DNA of 53,555 nt from a plasmid: the sequence record CP132320.1, one strand, 5' to 3'. Both the position numbers and the translations under genes were made by a program. Below are positions 34,582 to 50,534 of this stretch, in pieces (position 1 is the stretch's first letter; the number at the start of each line of letters is the position of its first letter). The notes beneath the pieces were generated by a model. The model made no database searches. It worked only from the letters and a program-made list of their open reading frames with translations, and was not told the origin of the DNA.

Positions 34582-34810
34582 GTAAGCATCCGGCGAAGGC
34601 CGCAGGTCAGGCCGCCTGAGCACTCAGCGTCTTGGGTGTCCAGTTCCACGGCAGCAATTGCTGCAGCCTGCTGATCGGCGTGTCGGCAATGTTGGCGAGG
34701 ACATCCGCCAGCCAGGCTTGTGGGTCGATGTCATTGAGCTTGGCCGTCATGATCAGCGTCGCCATGAAGGCGGCACGATCAGCACCACGATCCGATCCGG
34801 CGAAGAGCCA
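34582..34810 (-). mobile_element. IS66-family copy C, part 1 (tnpC 3' end with terminal repeat); separated from part 2 by the insertion of copy B
   Basis: It begins with the same terminal repeat GTAAGCATCCGGCGAAGG and is identical to copy A 31955-32183. It ends at ...CGAAGAGCCA, where copy B starts. Confidence 0.85.
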
Positions 34811-37369
34811 GTAAGCCCCCGGTGAAGGCCGTCTTGCGAGGTTGATGTGAACATCGGAAGTCCTAGTGCAAACACTAGGAGTAGTCCTATGACGAAGCAT
34901 CCGATTGAAGTGATCACGTCTGTCGAGCGCCGTCGGCGCTGGTCGCGCGAAGATAAGGAGCGGCTCGTTGCAGCCTGCCTTGAGCCTGGGGCGGTGCTTT
35001 CCGAGATTGCGCGATCGGCCGGCATCCACGTCAGCCAGCTCTTTCGGTGGCGCAAGGAGCTTTGCCAAATCGAGGAACCGAGAACCGAGACGGCGAACAC
35101 CTTGGTGCCCGTGGTCGTATCGGAGGCCGCGCCGGCAGTCCAACCCGTTGCCTCGGAAGCGCCGGCCTCATCGCAGCCCCGCCGCAAGCGTAGCGATGTG
35201 ATGATTGAGCTGGGCCGCGGTCGGCGCGTCCGCGTGGATAGCGACATCGACACGGAGGCGCTTGGCCGCATTCTCGATTGTGTACTGGGTCGGCGATGAT
35301 CCCGGTCCCTGCTGGTGTGAAGGTCTGGCTGGCAACGGGCCATACAGACATGCGCAAAGGCTTTCCCGGTCTGTCGCTGATGGTGCAGGAGACGCTGAAG
35401 CGCGATCCGATGTGCGGGCATCTGTTCGTGTTCCGCGGTCGTGGCGGTGGCCTGATCAAGGTCATCTGGCATGATGGCCAGGGAGCATGCCTGTTCACGA
35501 AGAAGCTGGAACGGGGACGCTTCATATGGCCGTCGGCGGCCGATGGGACGGTCGTGATTACGCCGGCGCAGCTCAGTTATTTGCTGGAAGGTATAGACTG
35601 GCGGATGCCGCAAAAAACCTGGCGACCGACCTCGGCCGGATAAGCAAAAATGCTGGAATGGCGGGAGCGAATATGATTCCATCTCGCCATGAACACCCGC
35701 GTCGAACAGCTTCCGGACGACCTTGCCAGTGCACTCGCACTGCTTGCCGAAGAGCGCGCGCGGCGTGTTGCTGCCGAGGCAGAGGCGGCGACCGCCAAGG
35801 CGGAAGCTGCCAGCGCGAGGGCGCTAGTATCGCATTCCGAGGCGCTAATCGCACGGCTGAAGCTAGAGATCGAGAAGGTCCGGCGCGACCTCTACGGCAG
35901 TCGCTCTGAACGCAAGGCGCGGCTTCTCGAGCAGATGGAACTGCAGCTTGAGGAGCTGGAGGCTGATGCCGGCGAAGATGAACTGGATGCAGAGATCGCA
36001 GCCAGTGCCTCGACGGTCAGGGCCTTCGAGCGCAAGCGTCCGTCACGCAAGCCCTTTCCTGAACATCTGCCGCGTGAACGTGTCGTTATCGCCGCCCCAG
36101 CCAGTTGCCCCTGCTGCGGCTCGGCAAAGCTGTCGAAGCTCGGCGAGGATATCACCGAGACCCTGGAGGTCATCCCGCGTCAGTGGAAAGTCATTCAGAC
36201 CGTGCGGGAGAAGTTCTCCTGCCGCGAATGCGAGAAGATCACTCAGCCGCCAGCGCCCTTCCATGTGACACCTCGCGGCTTTACCGGCCCCAACCTTCTG
36301 GCGATGATCCTGTTCGAGAAGTTCGCCCAGCATCAGCCGCTCAATCGCCAGAGCGAGCGCTATGCCCGAGAGGGGATCGACCTCAGCCTGTCGACGCTTG
36401 CCGATCAGGTCGGTGCGTGTGCCGCGGCCCTGAAGCCAATCCATTCGTTGATCGAAGCCTATGTCCTGGCCGCCGAGCGACTGCATGGCGACGACACGAC
36501 CGTGCCGATCCTGGCAAAGGGAAAGACCGATACAGGCCGCATCTGGACCTATGTCAGGGATGACCGGCCGTTTGGTGGGCTGTCACCGCCTGCAGCTTTG
36601 TTCTACGCAACGCGAGACCGACGACAGGAGCATCCCGAACGCCACCTGAAGACTTTCTCCGGCATTCTGCAGGCGGATGCCTATGGCGGCTACAATCCGC
36701 TGTTCAAGGCAGATCGCGATCCCGCGCCTCTGCGCCAAGCACTCTGCTGGGCACATTCACGCCGCAAGTTCTTCGTGCTGGCCGACATCGCCGCGAACGC
36801 CAAACGTGGCAGCAAAGCCGCATCGATCTCGCCGATGGCGCTGGAGGCTGTCAAACGGATCGATGCCCTGTTCGATATCGAACGGGAGATCAACGGCCTT
36901 AGCTCCGAGCAGCGCTTGGAGCGCCGCCGCCAAGACAGCCAGCCACTCATCGAAGAACTGCATCACTGGCTCCAAACCGAGCGGCTAAAACTGTCGCGCA
37001 GCTCTCCTGTCTCTGAGCCGATCGACTACATGCTGAAGCGCTGGGATGGATTTACGTCATTCCTCGACGATGGCCGAATTTGTCTCACGAACAACGCCGC
37101 CGAACGCGCGCTCAGAGGCTTTGCTCTCGGCAGGAAGTCATGGCTCTTCGCCGGATCGGATCGTGGTGCTGATCGTGCCGCCTTCATGGCGACGCTGATC
37201 ATGACGGCCAAGCTCAATGACATCGACCCACAAGCCTGGCTGGCGGATGTCCTCGCCAACATTGCCGACACGCCGATCAGCAGGCTGCAGCAATTGCTGC
37301 CGTGGAACTGGACACCCAAGACGCTGAGTGCTCAGGCGGCCTGACCTGCGGCCTTCGCCGGATGCTTAC
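34811..37369 (+). mobile_element. IS66-family copy B (2559 bp), inserted inside copy C with an 8-bp target duplication AAGAGCCA
   Basis: Complete tnpA (34889..35299), tnpB (35296..35643) and tnpC (35689..37344) on the plus strand. AAGAGCCA is present at 34803-34810 and 37370-37377, while the uninterrupted copy A carries a single AAGAGCCA. Confidence 0.9.
35689..37344 (+). CDS. tnpC: IS66-family transposase TnpC, copy B
   Basis: The 551-aa translation is identical to copy A. Confidence 0.9.
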   Translation: MNTRVEQLPDDLASALALLAEERARRVAAEAEAATAKAEAASARALVSHSEALIARLKLEIEKVRRDLYGSRSERKARLLEQMELQLEELEADAGEDELDAEIAASASTVRAFERKRPSRKPFPEHLPRERVVIAAPASCPCCGSAKLSKLGEDITETLEVIPRQWKVIQTVREKFSCRECEKITQPPAPFHVTPRGFTGPNLLAMILFEKFAQHQPLNRQSERYAREGIDLSLSTLADQVGACAAALKPIHSLIEAYVLAAERLHGDDTTVPILAKGKTDTGRIWTYVRDDRPFGGLSPPAALFYATRDRRQEHPERHLKTFSGILQADAYGGYNPLFKADRDPAPLRQALCWAHSRRKFFVLADIAANAKRGSKAASISPMALEAVKRIDALFDIEREINGLSSEQRLERRRQDSQPLIEELHHWLQTERLKLSRSSPVSEPIDYMLKRWDGFTSFLDDGRICLTNNAAERALRGFALGRKSWLFAGSDRGADRAAFMATLIMTAKLNDIDPQAWLADVLANIADTPISRLQQLLPWNWTPKTLSAQAA

Positions 37370-39707
37370 AAGAGCCATGACTTCCTGCCGAGAGCAAAGC
37401 CTCTGAGCGCGCGTTCGGCGGCGTTGTTCGTGAGACAAATTCGGCCATCGTCGAGGAATGACGTAAATCCATCCCAGCGCTTCAGCATGTAGTCGATCGG
37501 CTCAGAGACAGGAGAGCTGCGCGACAGTTTTAGCCGCTCGGTTTGGAGCCAGTGATGCAGTTCTTCGATGAGTGGCTGGCTGTCTTGGCGGCGGCGCTCC
37601 AAGCGCTGCTCGGAGCTAAGGCCGTTGATCTCCCGTTCGATATCGAACAGGGCATCGATCCGTTTGACAGCCTCCAGCGCCATCGGCGAGATCGATGCGG
37701 CTTTGCTGCCACGTTTGGCGTTCGCGGCGATGTCGGCCAGCACGAAGAACTTGCGGCGTGAATGTGCCCAGCAGAGTGCTTGGCGCAGAGGCGCGGGATC
37801 GCGATCTGCCTTGAACAGCGGATTGTAGCCGCCATAGGCATCCGCCTGCAGAATGCCGGAGAAAGTCTTCAGGTGGCGTTCGGGATGCTCCTGTCGTCGG
37901 TCTCGCGTTGCGTAGAACAAAGCTGCAGGCGGTGACAGCCCACCAAACGGCCGGTCATCCCTGACATAGGTCCAGATGCGGCCTGTATCGGTCTTTCCCT
38001 TTGCCAGGATCGGCACGGTCGTGTCGTCGCCATGCAGTCGCTCGGCGGCCAGGACATAGGCTTCGATCAACGAATGGATTGGCTTCAGGGCCGCGGCACA
38101 CGCACCGACCTGATCGGCAAGCGTCGACAGGCTGAGGTCGATCCCCTCTCGGGCATAGCGCTCGCTCTGGCGATTGAGCGGCTGATGCTGGGCGAACTTC
38201 TCGAACAGGATCATCGCCAGAAGGTTGGGGCCGGTAAAGCCGCGAGGTGTCACATGGAAGGGCGCTGGCGGCTGAGTGATCTTCTCGCATTCGCGGCAGG
38301 AGAACTTCTCCCGCACGGTCTGAATGACTTTCCACTGACGCGGGATGACCTCCAGGGTCTCGGTGATATCCTCGCCGAGCTTCGACAGCTTTGCCGAGCC
38401 GCAGCAGGGGCAACTGGCTGGGGCGGCGATAACGACACGTTCACGCGGCAGATGTTCAGGAAAGGGCTTGCGTGACGGACGCTTGCGCTCGAAGGCCCTG
38501 ACCGTCGAGGCACTGGCTGCGATCTCTGCATCCAGTTCATCTTCGCCGGCATCAGCCTCCAGCTCCTCAAGCTGCAGTTCCATCTGCTCGAGAAGCCGCG
38601 CCTTGCGTTCAGAGCGACTGCCGTAGAGGTCGCGCCGGACCTTCTCGATCTCTAGCTTCAGCCGTGCGATTAGCGCCTCGGAATGCGATACTAGCGCCCT
38701 CGCGCTGGCAGCTTCCGCCTTGGCGGTCGCCGCCTCTGCCTCGGCAGCAACACGCCGCGCGCGCTCTTCGGCAAGCAGTGCGAGTGCACTGGCAAGGTCG
38801 TCCGGAAGCTGTTCGACGCGGGTGTTCATGGCGAGATGGAATCATATTCGCTCCCGCCATTCCAGCATTTTTGCTTATCCGGCCGAGGTCGGTCGCCAGG
38901 TTTTTTGCGGCATCCGCCAGTCTATACCTTCCAGCAAATAACTGAGCTGCGCCGGCGTAATCACGACCGTCCCATCGGCCGCCGACGGCCATATGAAGCG
39001 TCCCCGTTCCAGCTTCTTCGTGAACAGGCATGCTCCCTGGCCATCATGCCAGATGACCTTGATCAGGCCACCGCCACGACCGCGGAACACGAACAGATGC
39101 CCGCACATCGGATCGCGCTTCAGCGTCTCCTGCACCATCAGCGACAGACCGGGAAAGCCTTTGCGCATGTCTGTATGGCCCGTTGCCAGCCAGACCTTCA
39201 CACCAGCAGGGACCGGGATCATCGCCGACCCAGTACACAATCGAGAATGCGGCCAAGCGCCTCCGTGTCGATGTCGCTATCCACGCGGACGCGCCGACCG
39301 CGGCCCAGCTCAATCATCACATCGCTACGCTTGCGGCGGGGCTGCGATGAGGCCGGCGCTTCCGAGGCAACGGGTTGGACTGCCGGCGCGGCCTCCGATA
39401 CGACCACGGGCACCAAGGTGTTCGCCGTCTCGGTTCTCGGTTCCTCGATTTGGCAAAGCTCCTTGCGCCACCGAAAGAGCTGGCTGACGTGGATGCCGGC
39501 CGATCGCGCAATCTCGGAAAGCACCGCCCCAGGCTCAAGGCAGGCTGCAACGAGCCGCTCCTTATCTTCGCGCGACCAGCGCCGACGGCGCTCGACAGAC
39601 GTGATCACTTCAATCGGATGCTTCGTCATAGGACTACTCCTAGTGTTTGCACTAGGACTTCCGATGTTCACATCAACCTCGCAAGACGGCCTTCACCGGG
39701 GGCTTAC
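37370..39707 (-). mobile_element. IS66-family copy C, part 2 (remainder of tnpC, plus tnpB and tnpA)
   Basis: Minus-strand tnpC is truncated at the copy-B insertion (ORF 37366..38829, 487 aa). tnpB is at 38875..39222 and tnpA at 39219..39629. The 8-bp target duplication GCTTTGGC is at 34574-34581 and 39708-39715. Confidence 0.85.
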
Positions 39708-39715
39708 GCTTTGGC

Positions 39716-39985
39716 AGGCACCCTTGGTTCTTCATCAGCCTGCTCAACAGGCGCTTGGCCGCTTTGGTTTTGCGGCGCGTCTGGACGATCTCGTCGAGAA
39801 CGTAGCCGTCTTGATCAACGTCACGCCAGAGCCAGTGCTTCCGCCCACCGATCGTCACAACCACCTCGTCGAGATGCCACACCGGAAGTAGAGCAAGCCA
39901 GCATGGGCGATCACAGATGGCGGGAAGCGATGGCGTTCGTAGCTCACAGGGTTCAGTTTTATCACCCCAACATAGCCGCAGAACC
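39716..39985 (-). pseudogene. IS6-family (IS26-like) transposase remnant with its terminal inverted repeat
   Basis: Minus-strand WHLDEVVVTIGGRKHWLWRDVDQDGYVLDEIVQTRRKTKAAKRLL parallels IS26 WHMDETYVKVNGRWAYLYRAVDSRGRTVDFYLSSRRNSKAAYRFL. An IS6-type terminal repeat GGTTCTGCGGCTATGTTGGGGTGATAAAAC lies at 39985-39956 (reverse-complement). It is internally deleted. Confidence 0.55.
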
Positions 39986-40010
39986 TAACCTGGTTTAACC
40001 TGACATCACC
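39961..40010. repeat. inverted-repeat partner 1 (IS6-type terminal repeat plus 19-bp flank); mate of 48510-48561
   Basis: The reverse-complement reads GGTGATGTCAGGTTAAACCAGGTTAGGTTCTGCGGCTATGTTGGGGTGAT. Confidence 0.7.
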
Positions 40011-40095
40011 CTAAGACGCTGCAGCTTGAACTAGATACTTGACTTGAACATCCTGCATTGCAATGGGTTTACTGTTGCTTCACCTAGGATACCAC

Positions 40096-42840
40096 ATGCT
40101 CAACGATACCGCCATCATCCACCACCTGGACATCCCTCTTCCATACGAGCTGCACGTTGGTCGCGGTCAGTTCTTGCACCTGCGTGGATGGGCGTTTTCT
40201 CCTGCCTTTGCGACACAGTGGGCGCACCTAGATGTGGGCGGGGAGCCCGTGCTTCTGGGAATGCACTCTATGCCACGGCGCGATGTTATCAGACAGATGT
40301 ATCCTGACCACGATAAGAATGGTTATTCCCTAAATTCCGGCTTCTGGTGCACTACGCCTGTCGCCGAGCATTGGATAGGCCAAAGCCTGCCCGTCTCTCT
40401 TGTTTTAGGTGGCGGGGGCAAAGTCGCGAAGGTAGAGCTAGGGACGGTAGAATTTAACAAGAACTTCAAAGATGTCCCCCTTCCCTATAAGTGGCTTGGC
40501 AACGGCCCAAAAGTTGCAATCTGTATGGCGGCGTACAGACCAAATTCAAGAATGTTTCGCCGGCAGCTCGATAGCATTAGGGGGCAAAGCTTCACGAACT
40601 GGATGTGTGTCATCACTGATGATAGTGCTTCAGCGCAGCATTCTGAAGAAATAGAGCGAATAGTTGGAGACGATACGAGGTTCATTGTCATAAAGAACGA
40701 GGCCAATCTAGGCTTCTATCATAACTTTGAAAAAGCTATTGGGTTAGCTCCGCCTGATGCTGATTTTATTGCATTGAGCGACCAGGATGATCGTTGGGAC
40801 ATGGACAAACTTGAGGCGTTAGTCAGTGCATTTAAACATGAGACTAGTTTAGTTTATTCCGACTGCCGCTTAACCGACGAAGCTGGAAACATTCTCTCAC
40901 CAACCTATTGGTCAACGCGGCGAAACAACTATGATAACCTTTCCACCTTAGCAATTGCTAACACGGTGACTGGCGCCGCAAGCATGTTCAGAGCGGCGAT
41001 TCGGCCCAAAATCCTTCCTTTTCCTCAGCGCGAGGGCGACGCTTATCACGATCACTGGATTGCCTTAGTCGCAAGAGCTAATGGGCCTATTAGGTATATC
41101 GAGCGCCCCCTGTATGACTACGTCCAGCACGAGAACAACGTGATTGGCCATAGTGGAAATCAGCGCTATCCGGGGATAACTAGCTTCGCCCGGCAAGTTG
41201 CTCGACATGCTAATCAGCCCACGAGAATGCTTTCCACCGCGAGCGAGGTACTTAGCGTCGCAATTACTCAATACCAGTTTCTGTTGAGGGTGTCGCTGAT
41301 GGCGCGCACCATACTTTATCGACAAGATCGGTTCTACTTGAAGCAAGACCGACGGACGTTTGTCAAGCTCGCCAGATACTCTGATAGCAAATGGGTTCCT
41401 CTGGCCGAGAAGACTTTGTCTATGATTCAGCGCCGCCCGTCTCTCAACCTCGAAGGTCACTTTCTTTATTCTGCTTGGGGAGCGCGTGCGGCGAGACTTT
41501 ACTATCGCTTGCGCGGTGTGAAACGCTATAGAACGGCACTCGATCATCCCGCCTCCGCCCTGCCACCAACACCCCTGGAATCATCTTCCGCTACATCCCA
41601 ATCTCATCCTGCCGTCGATGGGATTTTGCATGCAATCGCTCCTCTTACTCCAGATCTTGATACAACCGAGCCACAGCGGTTGAACCTTCTGATGGCCCGG
41701 ATTGACTTCAGATATGTCTACGGCGGCTACATAGGCATGTTCAACCTTGCAGCCCGTCTCGCGAAGGCAGGGAGGAGGGTGCGGATTGTTCTGCTTGAGG
41801 AGGGGGATTATGACCTCGCGCAGTGGCGGACGCAAATCGCCAAGTATCCCGGGCTGGAAGACCTGTTTGACCGGGTCGAGGTCGTTTATCGCTTCCACCG
41901 AGACAAACCGCTTCCAATGAACCCGCAAGATGGTTTTATCGCCACCAATGGTTGGAGCGCGCACGTAGCCCATTCAACTCTCAAGCGCCTGAACCGCGAA
42001 GGCTTCGTCTTTATGGCGCAGGAGTTCGAACCATTATTCTTGCCCTCAGGTACGATCCACGCGCTATTTCTCCAGAGTTACGACCTGCCTCAATTCACCT
42101 ATTTTTCCACGCCTCTCCTTCGCGATTATTTCCGTTCGAAGAGGCTTGGTATCTATCGAAATGGCGATACTCGCGCCGCGCAGGAGAACTGCGCCGTCTT
42201 CAAGAACGCAATCCTCCCATTCGATATGGATCTACAAAAAATCCGGGAGGCAGAAAAACGCATCGTGTTTTATGCTAGACCTGAGCAGCATGCGGCTCGG
42301 AACCTCTTTGAGTTGGGCTACATGGCGTTGCAGGCGCTTGTTGCCGCCTCCGATCTCAGAGGATGGTCGTTCCACGGCATTGGGCATCTCGGGGGGCAAA
42401 GTTCTTTGCCGCTTGGTGCTGGCGCGGAACTGAAAATGCTCCCGAAGACCGGCTTAGGCGAATACAAAGACATGCTAGTCAAGCACTCGGTTGGAATGTC
42501 GCTGATGCATTCTCCTCACCCAAGCCTCGTACCTCTGGAAATGGCGGCAGCCGGTCTGAGCACCGTCACAACAACCTACGAAAACAAAACAGAGGATGCG
42601 ATGCGGATGATCTCGTCAAATCTGATAGCTGTGCCGCCCACCGTGGACGGTCTTGTTTCCGGCCTCAAAGAGGCAATTGGCCGTATCGAACAACACGAAA
42701 GGCGGCTCGCGGGCACTCATGTTGATTGGCCTACCGATTGGCAACAAGCATTCAAAGAGAGCGATATCGCCATGTTACTTAGGTACCTGGATGAACGCGC
42801 TAAACCGTTCGCGCCTCATGGAGTTGTGGGAGCTGCATGA
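40096..42840 (+). CDS. large multi-domain glycosyltransferase (central GT2 domain plus additional N- and C-terminal domains)
   Basis: The ATG at 40096 is preceded by AGGA with 7-nt spacing. GT2 motifs include VAICMAAYRP...VITDDSASA...ALSDQDDRWD with a DxD. A ~400-aa C-terminal region resembles a second transferase-like domain. Visibly lower GC. Confidence 0.7.
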   Translation: MLNDTAIIHHLDIPLPYELHVGRGQFLHLRGWAFSPAFATQWAHLDVGGEPVLLGMHSMPRRDVIRQMYPDHDKNGYSLNSGFWCTTPVAEHWIGQSLPVSLVLGGGGKVAKVELGTVEFNKNFKDVPLPYKWLGNGPKVAICMAAYRPNSRMFRRQLDSIRGQSFTNWMCVITDDSASAQHSEEIERIVGDDTRFIVIKNEANLGFYHNFEKAIGLAPPDADFIALSDQDDRWDMDKLEALVSAFKHETSLVYSDCRLTDEAGNILSPTYWSTRRNNYDNLSTLAIANTVTGAASMFRAAIRPKILPFPQREGDAYHDHWIALVARANGPIRYIERPLYDYVQHENNVIGHSGNQRYPGITSFARQVARHANQPTRMLSTASEVLSVAITQYQFLLRVSLMARTILYRQDRFYLKQDRRTFVKLARYSDSKWVPLAEKTLSMIQRRPSLNLEGHFLYSAWGARAARLYYRLRGVKRYRTALDHPASALPPTPLESSSATSQSHPAVDGILHAIAPLTPDLDTTEPQRLNLLMARIDFRYVYGGYIGMFNLAARLAKAGRRVRIVLLEEGDYDLAQWRTQIAKYPGLEDLFDRVEVVYRFHRDKPLPMNPQDGFIATNGWSAHVAHSTLKRLNREGFVFMAQEFEPLFLPSGTIHALFLQSYDLPQFTYFSTPLLRDYFRSKRLGIYRNGDTRAAQENCAVFKNAILPFDMDLQKIREAEKRIVFYARPEQHAARNLFELGYMALQALVAASDLRGWSFHGIGHLGGQSSLPLGAGAELKMLPKTGLGEYKDMLVKHSVGMSLMHSPHPSLVPLEMAAAGLSTVTTTYENKTEDAMRMISSNLIAVPPTVDGLVSGLKEAIGRIEQHERRLAGTHVDWPTDWQQAFKESDIAMLLRYLDERAKPFAPHGVVGAA

Positions 42841-43272
42841 ACCCAAAATAAATTCTTGTAGCGAGAGGACTGAAGCGGATCATCAATAGCTACTTACCTC
42901 CTGATCCTTGAGAAGAGGACCGGACAGAGAAGTAGTGGGTGTGGCCGAAAGCCTCAAACTTGCTAAACAAGTGCCTAGACTCCTTCAGGCATATCATTAT
43001 TAAAATCTGCGCTTCATCCTAGTGGGGATGGGCATGATAATGCTGAACCGCGCCCTCTGTTCACGTTTCACTAGGTGACTAGCGACGTGAGCGTCCTTTA
43101 GATGTCGCAGGTTGCGCCGCTTGAGCTTCGACGAATCGGACCCGATACCATGGAAGTAGTTAATCCAGCCTGATCGTGGGCCTGGCGGCGCTTCGGGCAA
43201 AGACGTCGGCAAAGTAGGCCTGCCGATTGAAGTCTACGCTCGGCCCTCGGAGCATAACAAACTGGACCAAAG

Positions 43273-44214
43273 ATGATTTGCGATAAAGGCCTCACGAATT
43301 CTCCAGTGTCGGTTTTCGTACACGTTTATTATTTGGACATTTGGCGTGAAATATCGATGCAGATCGAGGCGCGTCTTGATGTTCCATTTCGTCTGATCAT
43401 AACCACACACCATGATGCCTCCTTGATTGATTTCCCAAGATCGCCTTATTTGACAGGGTGGGTGATCTACCCCGTCGGCAACAGGGGCCGCGACATTCTT
43501 CCATTTCTTAAGGCGCTTCATGACGAATACGGCACATTCGAAGTTGGGCTAAAGCTTCACACCAAGCGTTCCCCTCATCGTAGCGATGGCGACGTGTGGC
43601 GCCGCGCCATGATCGACTCTTTGGTACCTCAGGCCGGAGTAAGCTCGCTTGTAAGGTTGCTTTACGATCGACCAGAAGTGGGTCTCGTCGCACCCGAAGG
43701 ATTTTACGTGCCTATCCGTCAATGGATTGCAGGAAACAAGAAGGTAATAGCCACTGTCGCTAAAGCTACTGACCTAAGCGTTACGAAGGAAGAACTTCGC
43801 CAACGGTACTTCTCTGCTGGTTCAATGTTTTGGTTCCGATCCGCCGCTCTTAAGCAGGCGCTGCTGCCCTCACTTTTCTCAATGTTCGAGGATGAAGAGA
43901 GCCAACTTGATGCGACGGTCGCACATGCGCTGGAACGATTGTTCGCGTTGATAGTAGAGAAATCCGGATATGTGGCGGTGACTGCAGATCTTCTGTCAGT
44001 AGACCAAAAAGCCTCGCCGGATGCGACCTTGGCAGCAAGTGGGCGGTCTGGGGCCTGTCATCCTGTCCTTATGCAGCCTGACTACTTTTGGCTAAAGGCC
44101 AGTGGACTTCTGTTTATAGCCAAGCCAATCTTCCATTCACTCCCTCCGGTTTGGAGGGCCCGCCTTCGGTATTATTTTTCGCCGAAGCAAAGGCCCGGGA
44201 AACAGTCGAGGTAG
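43273..44214 (+). CDS. rhamnan-synthesis protein F (RgpF)-like glycosyltransferase
   Basis: The N-terminal VFVHVYYLDIW...RLIITTHHD pattern is characteristic of the RgpF family (H.YY.D...). 313 aa. Confidence 0.55.
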   Translation: MICDKGLTNSPVSVFVHVYYLDIWREISMQIEARLDVPFRLIITTHHDASLIDFPRSPYLTGWVIYPVGNRGRDILPFLKALHDEYGTFEVGLKLHTKRSPHRSDGDVWRRAMIDSLVPQAGVSSLVRLLYDRPEVGLVAPEGFYVPIRQWIAGNKKVIATVAKATDLSVTKEELRQRYFSAGSMFWFRSAALKQALLPSLFSMFEDEESQLDATVAHALERLFALIVEKSGYVAVTADLLSVDQKASPDATLAASGRSGACHPVLMQPDYFWLKASGLLFIAKPIFHSLPPVWRARLRYYFSPKQRPGKQSR

Positions 44215-44376
44215 TAGAAACCTCAGTTTGCTCTAAAGAAAAGTCTTGCGGCACTGCCTTGACCGGCTAACACCTAAATCAATTTTAGGAGCAGCTGAAA
44301 CAGGGGCACTTTTTATCTTCATGTCGCACGTGAAGAGATCTAAGAACAGCGGCTGAAACAGAAAATGGATTAACCT

Positions 44377-45186
44377 ATGTTGGAATATCTGCGAAGCTCA
44401 TGGGATCAGCGGGCACTCGTTTGGCGGCTTGCTCGACGTGAAATCGATTCTCGGTTTCGGGGGTCACTTCTTGGAGTTCTCTGGGCAGTCATCGTGCCGC
44501 TGGTCATGCTCTCTGTCTATTCCTTGGTGTTTGGGACTGTATTTCAGTCTCGCTGGCCCCGCCCCGACGACGCCACAATGCTCCATCAAGTTGACTTCCC
44601 GATGATTCTCTTCACGGGCCTCATTGTATTCGGTATTTTTTCTGACCCGATAAACCGCGCGCCGACGCTGATCCTAGAGAACGTTTCCTATGTCAAGAAA
44701 GTGGTGTTTTCGCTAGAGATCCTACCCGTGGTTGCGCTAATCAATGCGCTCTTCACGGCCTTGATATCATCGGGTGTCCTCTTGACAGTTTACCTAATTC
44801 TCTACGGCATACCGCCGATGACGGCTCTGTTGCTGCCCCTGGCTGTCGCGCCGTTGATCTTAATAACCTTGGGAATCTCGTACGTTCTCGCCTCCTTGTC
44901 AGTCTTCCTGCGTGACCTGAGGCACCTCACCGCTCCTTTGACGACAGCCGTGCTGTTTCTCTCGCCGGTATTTTATTCAATCAACGTCCTTCCGGAAGCG
45001 TGGCGTTGGACGCTGTATCTCAACCCTATAACACTCGCGGTCATTTACACCCGGGACTTACTGTTCTGGGGAAAGCTGCCCAGCCCAATGCAATGGGCGA
45101 CATATCTACTCGCTGCACTTGCTGTAGCTAGCGTTGGCTCATGGTGGTTCTCTCGCACGAAAAAGGCTTTTGCTGATGTCCTCTAA
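44377..45186 (+). CDS. wzm: ABC-2 type polysaccharide (O-antigen) export permease
   Basis: 269 aa with six predicted TM helices and an ABC-2 permease profile. It overlaps the start of the ATPase gene. Confidence 0.88.
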   Translation: MLEYLRSSWDQRALVWRLARREIDSRFRGSLLGVLWAVIVPLVMLSVYSLVFGTVFQSRWPRPDDATMLHQVDFPMILFTGLIVFGIFSDPINRAPTLILENVSYVKKVVFSLEILPVVALINALFTALISSGVLLTVYLILYGIPPMTALLLPLAVAPLILITLGISYVLASLSVFLRDLRHLTAPLTTAVLFLSPVFYSINVLPEAWRWTLYLNPITLAVIYTRDLLFWGKLPSPMQWATYLLAALAVASVGSWWFSRTKKAFADVL

Positions 45187-46513
45187 TATTGCACTGAAGG
45201 CCGCTGGCTTAGGCAAGGCTTTTCAGATTTACAGAAAGCCACAGGATCGACTTAAGCAGATGGTTTTCCGTTGGAATCGGTATTACGAGGAGTACTGGGC
45301 CGTACAGAATGTAGATCTTACCGTTCATCGGGGAGAGACCGTGGGTATTGTCGGCCGCAACGGCTCGGGGAAGTCCACACTTCTCCAGTTAATAGCGGGG
45401 ACTTTACAACCGAGCGTGGGGACACTCTCGGTGTATGGCCGAGTCGCCCCCCTTCTGGAACTCGGCGCAGGATTCAACCCCGAGTTCACCGGCCGTGAGA
45501 ACGTCAAGCTAGCCGGAACTATCATGGGCGTTGCTCCGGATTATATCAATAAACGCTTTGACGAAATTCTTGATTTTGCAGGCATAGGTGAATTTATTGA
45601 GCAGCCTGTTAAGACTTACTCTTCCGGGATGTACGCCCGCCTTGCCTTTGCGGTTGCGGCCCATGTTGAGCCAGATATTCTCATCGTCGACGAAACCCTT
45701 TCTGTGGGCGACGCCGCTTTCGGCCAGAAATGCATGCGGTACATCAGGCAATTTAAGAAAGATGGGACGTTGCTGTTTGTCTCTCATGACACCGCGGCGG
45801 TGACGGCATTATGCGATCGGGTGCTATGGCTGGACAATGGTATGATACGCGCCGAGGGTGCAACCAAGGACGTAACGTTCGCCTACCACGCTGCCTTACG
45901 CGAAGAGATCGATGGTGGGGGCTTTTCAGTCGCGGGACGGAGACGACATCATCCCGTCCAACCAAGCCGCGACCTCAGGCACGAAAAGATCCGGAAGTCG
46001 GATAAACGCAACGTAATTGAGGTATTCGAGTTTGACCCTGACGCACCATCATTTGGCAAGAAGGGGGGGACCATCGACTATGTCAGAATTAAAACCGCCG
46101 GCGGTGGTCATCTCGCGGAACCAGAGGGCGGTGAGAGCGTAACGGTAGAAATAGTCTGCACGGCACAGGCGGAGCTAACTAACCCCATCATTGGTTTCTT
46201 ATTAAGAGACAAGCTCGCCCAAAACATCTTCGGAGATAATACCTACTTGAGCTATGCCGAGGATCATGTCTCTGTTGCCGCAGGTCAACAGTTCAAAGCC
46301 TCATTTACTTTTCAGATGCCGTATCTTCCACCGGGCGACTACAGCATCGCCGCTGCACTTGCAGAGGGCAGTCAGACGGACCACGTGCAACATCATTGGA
46401 TTGATGAGGCGTTGATTTTTCGGATAGCTGCAGGCCACGTCACCCATGGCGTGTTGGGTATACCAATGAACGAAATAACGCTTGAAGTACTTACGAAGGA
46501 GGACATGGAATGA
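45176..46513 (+). CDS. wzt: polysaccharide export ABC ATP-binding protein with a C-terminal carbohydrate-binding extension
   Basis: Walker A GRNGSGKST, signature YSSGMYARLAF and Walker B ILIVDE. A ~200-aa C-terminal extension beyond the ATP-binding domain is as seen in Wzt proteins that recognise a modified O-polysaccharide terminus. Confidence 0.88.
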   Translation: MSSNIALKAAGLGKAFQIYRKPQDRLKQMVFRWNRYYEEYWAVQNVDLTVHRGETVGIVGRNGSGKSTLLQLIAGTLQPSVGTLSVYGRVAPLLELGAGFNPEFTGRENVKLAGTIMGVAPDYINKRFDEILDFAGIGEFIEQPVKTYSSGMYARLAFAVAAHVEPDILIVDETLSVGDAAFGQKCMRYIRQFKKDGTLLFVSHDTAAVTALCDRVLWLDNGMIRAEGATKDVTFAYHAALREEIDGGGFSVAGRRRHHPVQPSRDLRHEKIRKSDKRNVIEVFEFDPDAPSFGKKGGTIDYVRIKTAGGGHLAEPEGGESVTVEIVCTAQAELTNPIIGFLLRDKLAQNIFGDNTYLSYAEDHVSVAAGQQFKASFTFQMPYLPPGDYSIAAALAEGSQTDHVQHHWIDEALIFRIAAGHVTHGVLGIPMNEITLEVLTKEDME

Positions 46514-47196
46514 GCATTCGCTGTTCAGTGTGCGGCGGTGAAGAGTTCGGCGTAACGCCGGTCCTTTGGCCTAAGCTTATCGGCGAGTGGCAACTTTCTC
46601 CGTCTGAAGCCGACTACATCGATCGCCAACAAGGCGAATGCTGCACGAACTGTGGCGCAAATTTGCGATCGATAGCACTTTCTGACGCTCTCCTTTCCTG
46701 TTACCAAGAGCACGGCACGTTGATCCAAGCAGTGCAATCCGGTTCGCTAGCATCGAAAAAGGTTCTTGAGATCAACGAGGCAGGTACCCTTCACAAGGTA
46801 CTCGAGGACCTACCTAATTTGACATTTGGACAGTATCCTGATGTCGATATGCACGCTTTACCGTATCCAGATGAGAGTTTCGATCTGGTGATGCACTCGG
46901 ATACCCTTGAGCATGTTGAAAACCCGATCCACGCATTGCGCGAATGTGCGCGGGTGCTTAAGGAGGACGGCTTCTTATGCTTTACGGTGCCAATCATCGT
47001 GGAACGCTTATCCCGGAGTCGGGCTGGTCTCCCGAAGAGCTACCATGGAAACCCAGCGCAATCTGGCGATGACTATTTGGTGCATACCGAATTTGGGGCT
47101 GACGCATGGGTTCTTCCATTGCGCGCGGGCTTTCGGAAGGTTGCGCTCAATGCGATCGACTTCCCTGCCGCTCTAGCGTTGGTCGCAGCGAAGTGA
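46510..47196 (+). CDS. class I SAM-dependent methyltransferase with an N-terminal CxxC...CxxC zinc-ribbon
   Basis: CSVCGG...CTNCGAN zinc ribbon. Methyltransf_11-like core (VLEINEAG...FDLVMHSDTLEHVENP). ATGA-coupled to wzt. Confidence 0.75.
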   Translation: MSIRCSVCGGEEFGVTPVLWPKLIGEWQLSPSEADYIDRQQGECCTNCGANLRSIALSDALLSCYQEHGTLIQAVQSGSLASKKVLEINEAGTLHKVLEDLPNLTFGQYPDVDMHALPYPDESFDLVMHSDTLEHVENPIHALRECARVLKEDGFLCFTVPIIVERLSRSRAGLPKSYHGNPAQSGDDYLVHTEFGADAWVLPLRAGFRKVALNAIDFPAALALVAAK

Positions 47197-47216
47197 ATAA
47201 TCTTAAGGACAATGAG

Positions 47217-48380
47217 ATGCCCAAATTAGCCACAGACGGTTCAACCCCGAGTGGAACGCCAGAGCTGCTGTATACGGGAGAGCGTTTTCACCCCGACAAA
47301 CTTGGGGAGATCCGACAAGAGCATATGCACCGATACGCATGGATTTCGCATCTTGTGCGAGATAAAGACGTGTTAGATGCTGCCTCCGGAGAGGGTTTCG
47401 GTTCCAATATCCTCGCTGCGACTGCGAGATCTGTCATCGGAGTCGATCTAGCTCTCCAAGCAGTTGATCATGCGCAGAAGCAGTATGCGCTTACAAAAAA
47501 CCTGGAGTTCAAGTGCGGCGACACACGTTGCCTTCCTTTGCCGGATAATTGTGTCGATGTTGTAGTCTCCTTCGAGACCGTTGAGCATGTCGATGAGCAG
47601 AACCGAATGATTTCTGAATTCCGTCGAGTACTGCGTCCGGATGGTGTTTTGGTGATTTCCTCACCCAATCGGGAGGTTTACTCTGACAAGCAGGAGCATC
47701 ACAACGAGTTTCACGTGAGGGAACTCGATCGTTCTCAGTTCTCAGACCTGCTGAGCACACAGTTCGGCGCTGTGGAGATGTTCGCCCAGCGCCTTTGCGT
47801 ATCATCGAGCATTTTGCCAGAGCGGTCTGTCCCTTTTGCCAAAGCGGACGTATTTCTCGACGATGGCGAACTAAAGGAAGTCGCGACGGCTTTGCCTTCC
47901 ACGATGTATTATATCGCCCTAGCCGCAGCTTCAGAGGATCTGCTACCGACGGCAAATAGCTCGTTTATGGTAAGTTCCCACTATGACGTCTACTGGAACA
48001 TGAGAGAGGAGCTGGCTGACCAAAAAAGATCCTTGGGAAGAATGAAAGCTCAACAAACTCATCTTGGTAACCTTTTCCAGAAATTATCGCAGCAAGCAGG
48101 CGATGTCGCTACATTGTTATCTAGTGAGGTTTTCGATCCTCCAGGATATGCGAAGCGAGCTAATCTTTCTGACCATGACCCTGAGATGAGTGCCCGACAT
48201 TACCTGAGTACAGGTGAGCGGGATGGGATCCCACCAAGTGACCGTTTTGATCCCGTTTTCTATCGTTCAAGGTATAGTGATCTTGCTGATCTTCCAACCA
48301 GTCTACTGGTCCATTACCTCCGCGCAGGCCAATTTGAGGGGAGGCTGCCAGTCGCCCCAGGCGAGAAAGGAGACGATTAA
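47217..48380 (+). CDS. class I SAM-dependent methyltransferase with a C-terminal coiled-coil extension
   Basis: The ATG at 47217 is preceded by AAGGA. The methyltransferase core is VLDAASGEGFGSNIL...VDVVVSFETVEHVDEQ. A C-terminal ~150 aa region contains a predicted coiled-coil (NMREELADQKRSLGRMKAQQTHLGNLFQKLSQQAGDVATLL). Confidence 0.7.
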   Translation: MPKLATDGSTPSGTPELLYTGERFHPDKLGEIRQEHMHRYAWISHLVRDKDVLDAASGEGFGSNILAATARSVIGVDLALQAVDHAQKQYALTKNLEFKCGDTRCLPLPDNCVDVVVSFETVEHVDEQNRMISEFRRVLRPDGVLVISSPNREVYSDKQEHHNEFHVRELDRSQFSDLLSTQFGAVEMFAQRLCVSSSILPERSVPFAKADVFLDDGELKEVATALPSTMYYIALAAASEDLLPTANSSFMVSSHYDVYWNMREELADQKRSLGRMKAQQTHLGNLFQKLSQQAGDVATLLSSEVFDPPGYAKRANLSDHDPEMSARHYLSTGERDGIPPSDRFDPVFYRSRYSDLADLPTSLLVHYLRAGQFEGRLPVAPGEKGDD

Positions 48381-48509
48381 ACATACCCTTCACCTTCGCA
48401 GTTCTTCGTACCCACCTCGAATCGTGGTTCAAGATGCTTCCTTGATCAACTGCTTCCAGTGGTCAGCGTGAAGCTTATCTTAGAGCAACTGCCCAAGAGC
48501 AGTTCCTTT

Positions 48510-48561
48510 GGTGATGCCAGGTTAAACCAGGGGTAAGTTCTGCGGCTATGTTGGGGTGATG
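48510..48561. repeat. inverted-repeat partner 2 (IS6-type terminal repeat plus 19-bp flank); mate of 39961-40010
   Basis: GGTGATGCCAGGTTAAACCAGGGGTAAGTTCTGCGGCTATGTTGGGGTGAT matches about 45 of 50 positions of the mate. It is cut at 48566/48567 by an IS66-family end. Confidence 0.7.
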
Positions 48562-48566
48562 AGCCG

Positions 48567-48897
48567 TAAGCGGCAAGCGGCAAGCTGACACCGTTCAGTG
48601 CGCGTGATTCCATGGCATGAGTGCCTCAAGATCGCTGCGCGGCCAGCCGTTGGCGATGCGGTCGAGGGTCTGGGTAAGCCAGGCCCGCGGATCGACGTTG
48701 TTCATCTTCGCTGCCTGAAGGAGCGTTGCGATCGTCGCCCAAGCCCTTCCACCTCGGTCGCTGCCGGCGAAGAGACTGTTCTTTCTCGTGATCGTCTGGG
48801 GCGTGATTGCACGCTCAACGATGTCGCTGTCGAGCTCAATGCGGCCGTCGGTGAGGAAACGCTCGAAGATGGCGCGACGCGAGGTGGCATAGCGGAT
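48567..48897 (-). mobile_element. fragment of a second, distinct IS66-family element (terminal repeat plus 3' ~100 codons of tnpC)
   Basis: It starts GTAAGCGGCAAGCGG, an IS66-type terminal repeat. The minus-strand translation ...RIELDSDIVERAIRPQTITRKNSLFAGSDRGGRAWATIATLLQAAKMNNVDPRAWLTQTLDRIANGWPRSDLEALMPWNHAH is an IS66 TnpC C-terminus differing from copies A to C. It is truncated at 48897/48898 by an IS3-family end. Confidence 0.6.
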
Positions 48898-49731
48898 TGA
48901 CCTTGCCCCCGAGTTTTATCCAGTTTTGAGTTCGCTCCGGCGGTTTTTTGAGGTGCCCCCCGTTTTTGGGTCAGCAAGAGCTGGAATTTTCCGGGGTTAA
49001 GGCTCACGTCGGCGGGGGTGCCGATGAGCCGTTCATGAGCGAAATCGGCACCTTGTTGCCGATCGCGCTATGTGGCCGGAACTCGCTATATTCTCTACGC
49101 CAATCCTCCATTTTTACCCGCGCGTCGTCAAGGCTCATGAACCAGTGGGCATTCAGACATTCGGTCCGGAATTTCCCATTGAGACTCTCGATGTAGCTGT
49201 TGTCCGTCGGCTTGCCAGGCCGGGAGAAGTCGAGCACGACGCCCTTGTGACAGGCCCACAGGTCGAGATTACGAGAGATAACTCGCTGCCATTATCCACC
49301 CGATTAGTGGCCGGGTTACCGACTTGGCGACACACCCGCTCAAGCGTCTGGACCACATCCTCGCCCTTGTAACTGAAGCGCGCATCCACCGTCGGCGAGA
49401 AGCGGGAAAAGGTATCGACGACCGTCAGGACCCTGATCTTGCGGCCCGTAGCTAGTTGGTCATGAACAAAGTCCATCGCCCAGACGTGGTTGGAATGCGT
49501 TGGCTCCGTTCGGTCAGCACGCAGCTTTGCCTTGACCCGGCGCTTGGGAACCTTGTTGCGGAGCTGAAGGCCCATCTCCTTGTGAAGGCGATAGATTCGC
49601 TTCGGATTAACGGCCCAGCCGTCACGCTTGAGCAGAACATGGACACGACGGTATCCATAGCGCACACGTGTCTGGCAGATGTCCTTGATCTTCAGCTTAA
49701 GTTCGGCCTGCTCGCCACGCCGGGACTTGTA
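48898..49731 (-). mobile_element. IS3-family (IS407-group) remnant: terminal repeat plus frameshifted orfB, truncated by a Tn3-family insertion
   Basis: The terminal repeat TGACCTTGCCCCCGAGTTTTATCC at 48898 matches IS407-group ends (TGACCTGCCCCC). OrfB DDE region HSNHVWAMDFVHDQLATGRKIRVLTVVDTFSRFSP is in ORF 49153..49791. The C-terminal piece LDFSRPGKPTDNSYIESLNGKFRTECLN is in ORF 49004..49237, so there is a frameshift. orfA is absent. Confidence 0.65.
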
Positions 49732-49787
49732 GGCGTCACGACACGGAAGTGGTGAATCTGTCCGACTTTTGAGAACGTATCCAGAAC

Positions 49788-50408
49788 TCAAGTTGGTTTA
49801 ACCGCAGATGTCGTTGCTTTTTCAGCCCTGAGAGCTTCGTAAAGGGCGGTTTTGCCTATTTTGACGCGGGCCGCGGCCTCCCGGACGTTCAAACCGGCCG
49901 CCAGATGCTGGCGGGCTTTGGCTAGTTTCTCCGGGGTTACGACGACTTGTCGGCCACCGCGTCGGCCGCGTTCTTCTGCGGCTTGTAGACCGGCACGTGT
50001 TCGTTCCCTGATCAGATCGCGCTCGAACTGTGCCAGCGCGCCGAACAGGTGGAATACCAGTCGACCGCCCGATGTCGTCGTGTCGATGTTTTCGGTGATG
50101 GATCGGAAGCCGACGCCTTTGGCCTCCAGTTCGGTGATGATCTCAATGAGGTGCTTCATCGACCTACCGAGGCGGTCGAGCTTCCAGACTGTGAGCGTGT
50201 CGCCGTCGCGAACGTAGCGGATCGCCTCCGCCAGTCCGGGCCGGTCAGTCTTCACGCCGGATGCCTTATCCTCGAACAGTCTTTCACAGCCCGCGTTGCG
50301 CAAAGCGTCGAGTTGCAGGGCGGTGTCCTGGTCGCCGGTGGAGACCCTTGCATAGCCGATAGAGGTCATGAGACGTGGTTTGTCCGTTTTCTCGTTGAAC
50401 TCGGACAA
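49788..50408 (-). CDS. tnpR: Tn3-family resolvase TnpR
   Basis: SIGYARVSTGDQD catalytic-serine motif. C-terminal HTH (NVREAARVKIGKTALYEAL). 206 aa, with a possible start at M14 (50369). Confidence 0.88.
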   Translation of the reverse strand: MSEFNEKTDKPRLMTSIGYARVSTGDQDTALQLDALRNAGCERLFEDKASGVKTDRPGLAEAIRYVRDGDTLTVWKLDRLGRSMKHLIEIITELEAKGVGFRSITENIDTTTSGGRLVFHLFGALAQFERDLIRERTRAGLQAAEERGRRGGRQVVVTPEKLAKARQHLAAGLNVREAAARVKIGKTALYEALRAEKATTSAVKPT

Positions 50409-50534
50409 TGTCCGATTTGCCGTTCAAGCACAAGGTTTGCGGACAAAAACTGTGGATGCCGCGAAACGGTCGTTTGTCGGACATGTGTTTTCCAGTTCGC
50501 TGCGGTTTCCGCAACGAAACTGGAAGCCGAGACA

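Follow-up and report, generated by a model that had tools for sequence, protein, structure and literature searches.

Inverted repeat around part of a plasmid-borne rhamnan-type polysaccharide cluster probably derives from two decayed IS6-family insertion sequences

Elements of the IS6/IS26 family begin with GG and have G at position 7 and G at position 10, or A at position 10 in clade III, which includes alphaproteobacterial members such as ISApr5 and ISBj7 (Harmer and Hall 2019, PMC6807381). Intramolecular replicative transposition of IS26 in trans yields an inverted segment between oppositely oriented IS26 copies (He et al. 2015, PMC4471558). The IS6 pseudo-compound transposons Tn4352, Tn610, and Tn4003 contain complete direct copies and move via cointegrates or translocatable units (Varani et al. 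2021, PMC7986276). For O-antigen clusters, a related case is Salmonella enterica group D2, in which an H-repeat (IS) remnant at a cluster junction has been proposed to be the scar of IS-mediated joining (Xiang, Hobbs and Reeves 1994, as reviewed in PMC3715488).

The window (the whole stretch of DNA analyzed, 53,555 nucleotides of plasmid record CP132320.1) carries a polysaccharide cluster, part of which lies between the arms of a ~50-bp inverted repeat. A first-pass annotation had proposed that this 8.5-kb block is a unit moved or inverted by IS6/IS26-type activity. In the reading that we prefer (probability roughly 0.72), the two arms are the left ends of a single rhizobial IS6-family IS, present as two decayed copies that inserted separately, and the block never moved alone. 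The genes concerned are the following (all coordinates are positions in the window).

29962-31923, plus strand: rmlA and a 306-aa GT2 glycosyltransferase gene, outside the bracket, with GC as low as in the block
40011-48509, plus strand: the 8.5-kb block between the tips, with genes predicted to serve elongation, export, and termination in a polysaccharide pathway that depends on an ABC transporter
40063-42840, plus strand: glycosyltransferase with GT2 and WsaF_N/WsaF_C domains, an ORF of 925 aa (914 aa in public gene calls, which begin at 40096)
43273-44214, plus strand: RgpF-like rhamnan synthesis protein, 313 aa, from its Pfam domains
44377-45186, plus strand: Wzm, ABC-2 membrane component (PF01061)
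45134-46513, plus strand: Wzt ATPase with Wzt_C carbohydrate-binding domain (PF00005 and PF14524; public calls give 445 aa from 45176)
46510-47196, plus strand: methyltransferase, 228 aa, from its domains
47106-48380, plus strand: methyltransferase, an ORF of 424 aa (387 aa from 47217 in public gene calls)

A domain search recovered the gene content between the arms as it had first been listed. By domains, the left half of the cluster comprises rmlC, rmlB, rmlD, rmlA, Bac_transf (an initiating phosphoglycosyl transferase), and GT2, and the whole has the components of a rhamnan-type ABC-transporter-dependent O-polysaccharide cluster (Wzm/Wzt with Wzt_C, rmlABCD, and initiating and polymerizing transferases). 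The block resembles the TET operon of the Pseudomonas syringae common polysaccharide antigen locus (PMC7820976) and the wzm-wzt-wbdD-wbdA genes of E. coli O8/O9a in having Wzm, a Wzt with a C-terminal carbohydrate-binding domain, one or more methyltransferases, and one or more large multidomain glycosyltransferases. It also adjoins rhamnose precursor genes, as the TET operon does, an assignment made here from domain content alone. Unlike WbdD, the block's methyltransferases have neither kinase nor coiled-coil parts, as far as Pfam shows.

The cluster would work as one unit, the left half providing initiation and dTDP-rhamnose and the block providing elongation, chain-terminating methylation, and Wzm/Wzt export. 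We regard the halves as one functional cluster because of this Pfam content, because low GC begins at rmlA (see below), and because homologs of both halves are interleaved in a co-directional Consotaella salsifontis locus (L006: wzm, wzt, large glycosyltransferase, rmlC, rmlB, rmlD, rgpF, rmlA). The nearest non-identical homologs of the large glycosyltransferase (P0002, P0004) and of GT2 (P0124, P0130) sit in unrelated arrangements that are uninformative on whether the GT2 and 925-aa glycosyltransferase genes were ancestrally adjacent. Look-ups of the 914-aa glycosyltransferase and RgpF gave no new contexts, and the L032 lineage was thus followed up to its second IS66-type element. An exact-protein look-up of the 424-aa methyltransferase ORF found no record, since the start codon in public gene calls lies further downstream.

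The repeat had been described as bracketing the low-GC half of the cluster, and the GC values do not bear this out. The rmlA gene (29962-30852, 0.529) and the GT2 gene (31003-31923, 0.519), both outside the bracket, are as AT-rich as the block (0.512-0.534), and the compositional step lies near 29.95 kb, at rmlA, ~2 kb left of the IS6 remnant. This displacement bears on the possibility that an IS6-bounded block, or an IS6 cointegrate resolved in the cluster, brought a transport-elongation-termination module from outside to a resident half with the rml and initiation genes. Such a capture strikes us as improbable, given where the step falls. It would fit the position of the IS remnant exactly at the junction of precursor and elongation-export genes, as in Salmonella D2 (PMC3715488), the exchange of transport-elongation-termination operons as modules in P. 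syringae (PMC7820976), and the lack of a close relative elsewhere of the block's large glycosyltransferase (49% identity to the nearest protein outside this plasmid family). The likeness to D2, an IS remnant between two functionally distinct cluster halves, is incomplete: the D2 halves are nearly identical to known parental clusters, which proves recombination, whereas for the present cluster no parents are known and the change in composition falls elsewhere than at the IS remnant.

The inverted repeat itself was confirmed where the first-pass annotation had placed it. A repeat search of the window returned the inverted pair 39961-39990 / 48531-48560, and in a local alignment of the left arm (39961-40010) with the right arm (48510-48560), 47 of 51 positions are identical, with three mismatches and one gap. 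The longest stretch common to both arms without gap or mismatch is 24 bp. The arms and the IS6 remnants to which they belong are as follows.

39961-40010, minus strand: left arm, the transposase-proximal (left) IS6 end, with a 17-bp terminal inverted repeat, its tip at 40010, and a leader to an ATA start codon
39716-40010, minus strand: main piece of the left IS6 remnant, from DNA and protein alignment to IS6-family transposase
34522-34581, minus strand: second piece of the left IS6 remnant, covering transposase residues ~132-150, with IS66 copy 1 on one side and copy 3 on the other
31947-31954, no strand: left IS6 truncation point, 23 bp past the GT2 gene stop codon; also the target of IS66 copy 1 (GGTGGCGC), duplicated at 34514-34521
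48510-48566, plus strand: right arm, 57 bp, left end of the second IS6, with its tip at 48510, the leader, and ATGAGCC; abuts an IS66-family end

Complete relatives of these remnants, from Rhizobium, Neorhizobium, Shinella, and a soil metagenome, all terminate in GGTGATGTCAGGTTAAC. The nearest are ~800 bp long with one DDE transposase of roughly 234 aa: L001 is a complete 806-bp element whose two ends read GGTGATGTCAGGTTAAC and the complement of that sequence (the E-SH---R motif was read in this element), and the metagenome contig L056 carries a complete 800-bp element with the same ends. In an alignment of five left ends from four taxa, the common sequence runs from GGTGATG inward, and the flanks are unrelated. 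This places the true IS terminus at GGTGATGYCAGGTTAA, with the tips at 40010 and 48510. Both arms begin GGTGATGYCA (tip and leader of this isoform: GGTGATGYCAGGTTAAACCAGG...GGGGTGAT), and with GG at positions 1-2, G at 7, and A at 10 they satisfy the IS6/IS26 rule and are of the clade III type. The outer 17 bp of both arms are the same as the terminal repeats found in complete IS6 elements, which upholds their identification as IS6-family ends. Each arm, on this alignment, reads as the terminal inverted repeat GGTGATGYCAGGTTAA followed by the untranslated leader to the transposase start codon.

The terminus had originally been set at GGTTCTG, with an identical 19-bp flank beyond it that independent insertions were not expected to give. 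GGTTCTG instead lies within the leader, 5' of the transposase start codon (the right copy has AGTTCTG at this place), and the ends of complete elements identify the 19 bp as the IS's own terminal inverted repeat. This removes the chief argument for a single event, since the bases said to lie beyond the terminus are the terminal inverted repeat itself. Identity between the arms ends exactly at the tips, beyond which the flanks are unrelated: the inner flanks, CTAAGACG and AAAGGAAC, do not resemble each other (written pairwise, the inner-flank octamers are CTAAGACG/CGTCTTAG and AAAGGAAC/GTTCCTTT).

The 16-nt tip motif (chance expectation in the window, 0.41) and the 24-nt core occur at only two sites in the window, the two arms. 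No near-identical further copy of the repeat was found in 72,556 plasmids, which speaks against a generic repeat, and no exact match to the tip 22-mer was found in the metagenome collection, where an 18-mer tip scan gave eight matches with L056 the sole IS6 element among them. The best plasmid match to the arms is 77%, and L056 is ~80% alike (by eye). Because the arms are closer to one another (92%) than to any other IS6 end found, both belong to the same IS species. That the repeat has no connection with an IS, being a dispersed repeat of a generic kind or a palindrome with a regulatory or structural role in the cluster, has a negligible chance of being right and is refuted by the alignments to complete elements. 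Its sole attraction is the symmetry around an operon-like block; apart from the copy counts and shared outer 17 bp given above, the left arm runs unbroken into the coding region of an IS6 transposase. Scans for consensus promoters and terminators near the two tips returned nothing useful.

The left copy keeps ~363 of roughly 800 bp. Its main piece encodes transposase residues 1-33 (39962-39864) and 76-134 (39882-39706), with an internal deletion of ~145 bp at roughly 39883-39887; the start codon is a degenerate ATA, and there is nothing past ~residue 150 and no right end. The DNA is 83-86% identical to annotated IS6-family transposase genes, and the protein matches an annotated IS6-family transposase at 93% over residues 76-134 and 70% over residues 1-33. 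In five contigs (L032, L036, L037, L038, and L039), the second piece is contiguous with the main piece, whose 87-aa product carries PF13610 (DDE_Tnp_IS240). The right arm is identical in L022. There are no IS6 pieces in the window beyond these two remnants and no intact IS6 transposase; neither copy is a complete IS6 (~800 bp, two terminal repeats, intact transposase), and an intact copy of the exact isoform was not found in any data searched. The locus resembles clade III IS6/IS26 elements in its termini (GG, G7, A10) and in the homology of their leader and transposase N-terminus to the left remnant. It differs from them in consisting of fragments only, 363 bp and 57 bp, that have no intact transposase, right end, or target duplication. 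Both IS6 copies are fossils.

The two copies are in opposite orientation, and their surviving tips, which point at the 8.5-kb segment, delimit the rest of the plasmid and not the block. Because neither copy retains a transposase or an outer end, IS6 chemistry cannot move or invert the block today, and a longest identity of 24 bp would, in our judgment, be a poor substrate for homologous inversion. The arrangement shares with IS6 pseudo-compound transposons a cargo bounded by two IS6-family copies; those transposons have direct IS repeats (PMC7986276), whereas here neither copy is complete or active, the two are inverted, and the cargo is found in one context only. This counts against capture of the block, as does the truncation of the left IS6 on its outer side, which makes the present junction with GT2 a later deletion joint and not an insertion joint.

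Other mobile elements occupy the spacer and the region to the right of the block.

31955-34513, minus strand: IS66-family copy 1, 2559 bp, target duplication GGTGGCGC
34582-39707 (34582-34810 and 37370-39707), minus strand: IS66-family copy 3, target duplication GCTTTGGC
34811-37369, plus strand: IS66-family copy 2, nested inside copy 3, with an 8-bp overlap
48567-48897, minus strand: fragment of a different IS66-family element, with the TnpC C-terminus and the end GTAAGCGGCAAGCGG
48898-49731, minus strand: IS3-family fragment, frameshifted, with HTH_21 and rve domains
49732-53555, plus strand: Tn3-family element with 49-bp inverted repeats and a 1150-aa transposase

Both IS6 bodies had been thought destroyed by IS66 elements, and this is half right. 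The right copy is indeed cut off by the IS66-family end at 48567, and the left copy is interrupted by the nest of IS66 elements but was not destroyed by it. The three IS66 copies are identical, clean insertions, each with its own 8-bp duplication, and their removal in silico leaves an IS6 that is truncated and internally deleted, not intact. Contigs of other samples (the five named above) have an IS66-free remnant with the same truncation and internal deletion, and the empty site for IS66 copy 1 is present in L020 and L021. The IS66 copies are, from these comparisons, secondary to IS6 decay. The spacer of dead IS sequence within the cluster (roughly 415 bp) has taken at least six independent IS insertions, none of which hit an ORF; IS66, IS5-like, and IS3-like insertions later piled into this same non-coding spacer. 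The intergenic sites flanking the block visibly appear to act as insertion sinks. A preference of IS66 for IS6 sequence was considered and set aside in favor of the simpler view that the spacer is probably the only insertion-tolerant place in the cluster.

Related plasmids and contigs offer a direct view of whether the block has moved. The variant search covered contigs from at least 10 samples (including SRR22325147, SRR26502675, SRR26502666, ERR14864699, ERR14864704, and GCA_035092205.1/345.1/525.1/625.1). All variants found have the rml genes, the GT2 gene, the IS6 remnant, the 8.5-kb block, and the IS6 tip in one order and one orientation. L022 and L023 match window positions 40031-48714 at 99.77%, a stretch that runs through the right IS6 tip and 148 bp into the IS66 fragment, and L032 matches 27069-31954 at 99.86%. 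Across plasmid lineages the cluster halves are 99.8%-99.9% identical, compared with 87%-98.5% for the backbones, which are partly inverted. The ORFs of the block are intact in both lineages, with nine non-synonymous and nine synonymous differences. In the contigs searched, the block was never found elsewhere, alone, or inverted, always having the same cluster context, and PLSDB holds no near match to it. The relatives thus give no sign of independent movement, contrary to what had first been supposed, and the single context and matched identity of both halves further weaken the case for capture.

The same comparisons bear on whether the 8.5 kb was inverted in a single event, in which an IS6 beside the cluster transposed replicatively in trans within the same plasmid, duplicating itself in opposite orientation, and then decayed. 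We consider this unlikely, although oppositely oriented copies of one IS around a multigene plasmid segment are the product expected of IS26 intramolecular transposition (PMC4471558) and survive here as remnants. In contrast to the IS26 case, the outer ends with the diagnostic inverted 8-bp flanks are lost, neither an un-inverted state nor a single-IS6 relative occurs among the contigs from at least 10 samples, and the block is co-directional with its partner genes. Inversion would require an ancestor with antiparallel halves, unlike the co-directional Consotaella cluster. The mutual likeness of the arms is what a duplication would leave, but their ~8% difference, set against a neutral divergence of ~0.3%-0.5% between plasmid lineages, would make the event very old. 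In addition, cointegrate or replicative behavior is undemonstrated for clade III elements (PMC6807381).

Separate insertion of two copies remains our preferred account. Most likely the two IS6 copies landed independently in non-coding sequence, one on each side of an operon under selection. The present succession, from the rml genes and GT2 through the IS6 remnant and the block to the IS6 tip and the IS66 fragment, is older than the split of all public variants, and the IS66, IS5-like, and IS3-like insertions into the spacer came later. It should be noted that several observations count against this account: each IS6 copy has lost its outer end together with the 8-bp flank, so that the inner flanks have no partner for comparison of 8-bp duplications; outside this plasmid family the block has no relative above 49% protein identity that might show the state before IS6 arrived; the 92% likeness of the arms also fits one duplicative event followed by long decay; and opposite-orientation IS copies are the geometry of IS26-type intramolecular transposition in trans (PMC4471558). 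More broadly, the IS6 relics could be the scar of an old IS6 event, whether inversion or cointegrate-type capture, by which a resident half for rhamnose and initiation, on a mobilizable Shinella plasmid, acquired a transport-elongation-termination module of foreign origin. This proposal is tentative and on the whole doubtful; if true, the locus would parallel the Salmonella D2 recombination, with IS6 as the driver and a plasmid as the setting.

The outcome is mostly a correction. The inverted repeat is an ordinary mobile-element fossil, and what had suggested a mobile serotype cassette is simply the normal terminus of a decayed IS. The analysis also documents a rhizobial IS6 lineage with ends GGTGATGTCAGGTTAAC, unlike the textbook GGTTCTGTTGCAAA, a difference that could mislead other annotators. 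For the plasmids themselves, the rhamnan-type cluster travels whole between diverged Shinella-type plasmids, and its spacer repeatedly absorbs insertion sequences while its genes stay intact, which implies that the cluster is under selection.

The first-pass annotation had placed an inverted repeat at 39961-40010 and 48510-48561 of the window, and it is there: a repeat search recovers 39961-39990 / 48531-48560 at 93%, and local alignment of the full arms (39961-40010 and 48510-48560) gives 47/51 identical positions, with three mismatches and one gap. The 16-nt outer motif has two sites in the window, in the two arms (0.41 expected by chance), to which the 24-nt inner core is likewise confined within the window. 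Many Rhizobium plasmids carry annotated IS6-family transposase genes that align with window 39707-39882 at 83-86%. A complete relative (L001, CP090108.1) is 806 bp long with ends GGTGATGTCAGGTTAAC and GTTAATCTGACATCACC; a second complete relative, 800 bp long and located on soil metagenome contig L056, shares both ends, and its leader is closer to that of the window. In an alignment of five left ends (the two window arms plus those from Rhizobium leguminosarum, Neorhizobium galegae, and another Shinella sumterensis replicon), GGTGATG is exactly where similarity sets in, and the sequences flanking it are unrelated. The window tip fits the IS6/IS26 terminus rules of PMC6807381, which call for GG at positions 1-2, G at 7, and at position 10 G or, in clade III, A; the clade III motif E-SH---R can be read in the aligned transposase of L001.

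By the complete-element ends and the aligned left ends, what had been described as a 19-bp identical flank beyond the IS6 terminus is in fact the terminal inverted repeat. The GGTTCTG taken for the terminus sits in the variable leader between terminal repeat and start codon, where the right copy reads AGTTCTG. Identity of the two window copies ends at their tips (inner flanks CTAAGACG and AAAGGAAC). Because the shared bases are terminal repeat and identity goes no further, the argument that independent insertions could not produce it fails.

The left IS6 copy is split by three 2559-bp IS66-family elements that are 100% identical, each with its 8-bp duplication intact:

31955-34513, IS66 copy 1, a clean insertion flanked by GGTGGCGC
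34811-37369, IS66 copy 2, a clean insertion within copy 3, with an 8-bp overlap
34582-34810 and 37370-39707, IS66 copy 3, a clean insertion flanked by GCTTTGGC

With these taken out in silico, segments 31947-31954, 34522-34581, and 39716-40010 become contiguous as a single ~363-bp IS6 remnant, which comprises the tip, the leader, ATA in place of ATG, residues 1-33, a ~145-bp deletion, and residues 76 to ~150, and is truncated 23 bp past the stop codon of the GT2 gene. A search of the window for further IS6 pieces beyond the two copies found none. Since the IS66-free reconstruction is a truncated, deleted remnant, the IS6 was dead before IS66 arrived; the nest did not destroy its body, as had been proposed, but inserted cleanly into it. 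The IS66 copies were a very recent burst, and their empty sites survive on comparison contigs: in L020 and L021, window 31954 is joined straight to 34514 with a single GGTGGCGC (the empty site of copy 1), and in L032 and L036-L039, 27069-31954 is followed by 34514-34581 and 39708-40010, with zero IS66 copies and an IS6 remnant truncated and internally deleted as in the window. All 5 substitutions between the lineages' IS6 remnants (window versus L036 and L032) cluster within 22 bp (window 39936-39957), versus 0.15-0.23% difference over the remaining 13.5 kb of the cluster; the pattern resembles a short tract converted from another IS6 copy, or clustered mutation.

The right IS6 copy (57 bp, 48510-48566, ATGAGCC included) is indeed bounded by an IS66-family fragment. 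It directly adjoins the end of a different element of that family (GTAAGCGGCAAGCGG at 48567, TnpC C-terminus on the minus strand), followed by an IS3-family fragment and then a Tn3-family element. The stacked debris at 48567-49731 consists of a 331-bp IS66-family end, cut by the IS3-family fragment (frameshifted HTH_21/rve), itself cut by the Tn3-family repeat; in contig L022 the IS66 fragment is cut instead at 48714, by an IS with a 350-aa rve-domain protein. The Tn3-family element (49732-53555) has 49-bp inverted repeats (94% match), a 1150-aa transposase, and no resolvase inside, and L022 holds an inverted, 87% identical copy. The right repeat of this element runs to the final base of the record, which may therefore be cut at a repeat and not a closed circle.

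Comparison contigs from more than 10 other samples were recovered by exact-protein look-up. L036 follows the window up to CTAG 40031-40034 and then enters an IS5-like element, from the far side of which L022 and L023 continue with window 40031-48714 at 99.77%, a stretch that takes in the right IS6 tip plus 148 bp of IS66 fragment. In L032 and L037-L039 a second IS66-type element, 88% identical to the window's IS66 fragment, begins exactly at the IS6 tip, and L024 has an IS3-like element at ~40033 followed by 40033-49617 at 100%. Order and orientation are unchanged in every variant (rml genes, GT2 gene, IS6 remnant, block, IS6 tip, IS66 fragment), and in none of them was the 8.5-kb block (40011-48509) found alone, elsewhere, or reversed, contrary to its reading as a unit moved or inverted by IS6. 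Across lineages, identity is 99.86% for the left half (27069-31954) and 99.77% for the block (40031-48714), versus 98.5% for the relaxase region (590-4599, inverted), 91% for the ParA region (9563-11476), and 87% for the Tn3-family element (49731-53555, inverted). By these comparisons, what travels together is the entire cluster, dead IS6 included, and it seems to have been passed between, or kept by, plasmids that have diverged and been heavily rearranged. Beyond this plasmid family, 72,556 plasmids gave no near match to the block, and no entry of the protein database is more than 49% identical to its large glycosyltransferase.

Backbone genes include those for a MobA/MobL relaxase, a type IV coupling protein, and a resolvase, along with ParA- and ParB-like genes. 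An IS5-like element at ~18626-19386 (DUF4096 + DDE_Tnp_1, split), different from that of L022/L036, lies between resolvase and cluster, and an IS630-family element (20479-21516) has counterparts at 80-88% identity on many Rhizobiaceae plasmids. The 272-aa ORF at 377-1195 (minus strand), probably a truncated gene, encodes the signalling domain of a methyl-accepting chemotaxis protein and no other part of one; downstream of the relaxase, it adjoins ProQ/FinO-like and DUF6118 genes.

Domain content bears out the genes previously named between the arms (the block) and identifies those of the left half:

Left half: Bac_transf initiating transferase, Polysacc_synt_2 dehydratase, epimerase, rmlC, rmlB, rmlD, rmlA, GT2 enzyme
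Block: 925-aa GT2 + WsaF protein, RgpF-like protein, Wzm, Wzt with Wzt_C, two methyltransferases

By the same domain content, the two halves together are predicted to form a complete ABC-transporter-dependent rhamnan-type pathway. The block matches the transport-elongation-termination operon as named in Pseudomonas syringae (PMC7820976). In Consotaella salsifontis (L006), homologues of both halves (45-68% identity) are interleaved in one co-directional cluster (wzm, wzt, large glycosyltransferase, rmlC, rmlB, rmlD, rgpF, rmlA). The block is low in GC, as had been remarked (0.512-0.534 for its six genes), but the repeat does not bracket the low-GC region: rmlA (0.529) and the GT2 gene (0.519), left of the IS6 remnant, are equally low, and GC drops to this level from 0.54-0.59 near 29.95 kb. 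Comparison of the block across lineages gives 20 differing sites (9 non-synonymous, 9 synonymous, 2 intergenic), with all ORFs intact. Three longest ORFs start too early (40063 versus 40096, 45134 versus 45176, 47106 versus 47217); with the later public calls (914, 445, and 387 aa) an apparent 90-bp methyltransferase gene overlap disappears. In L032 (4731-7012; GCA_035092525.1) an IS21-type element (IstA/IstB) stands in place of window 23675-27068, which holds the initiating transferase, the Polysacc_synt_2 gene, and the greater part of the epimerase; the cluster of this variant starts at window 27069, and it probably cannot initiate synthesis alone.

Across public variants, the spacer that separates the GT2 gene from the large glycosyltransferase (31924-40062; ~415 bp once IS66-free) has gained six or more additional, independent IS insertions, versus none in the cluster ORFs: three copies of one IS66 element, the second IS66-type element at the IS6 tip, the IS5-like element at CTAG 40031-40034, and the IS3-like element at ~40033 (read from window 31924-40062, L022 1-420, L024 1-741, L032 12348-14848, and L036 5781-6441). 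The dead-IS6 spacer looks like a tolerated landing pad. Given this record, we favor separate origins, at a probability of roughly 0.5: the two IS6 copies would have landed independently at non-coding sites that tolerate insertions. IS26 can also transpose intramolecularly in trans, leaving an inverted segment between oppositely oriented copies, marked by inverted 8-bp flanks (PMC4471558); here the outer ends of both copies are deleted, so the flanks that would carry this signature are gone. Such a single-event inversion would suit two arms of the same IS species, more alike than either is to any other end found, but we consider it unlikely, and several points weigh against one recent event: the arms are ~8% apart versus ~0.3-0.5% neutral divergence between plasmid lineages, the block runs in the direction of its partner genes, the compositional step does not coincide with the IS6 remnant, and an un-inverted relative was not found. 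Module capture is less probable still. IS6-family elements move by forming cointegrates, generate 8-bp duplications, and build pseudo-compound transposons in which the copies are direct repeats (PMC7986276); the inverted arrangement here speaks against such a transposon.

Whatever its origin, the structure is inert today, as there is no transposase, the outer ends are gone, and the surviving tips face the block; they thus delimit the rest of the plasmid, not the block. IS remnants at junctions inside O-antigen clusters are long established, for example in Salmonella group D2 (PMC3715488), as is exchange of elongation/export modules, for example in P. syringae (PMC7820976). The evidence that made this feature seem special does not hold, and we regard it as a further instance of an established phenomenon.
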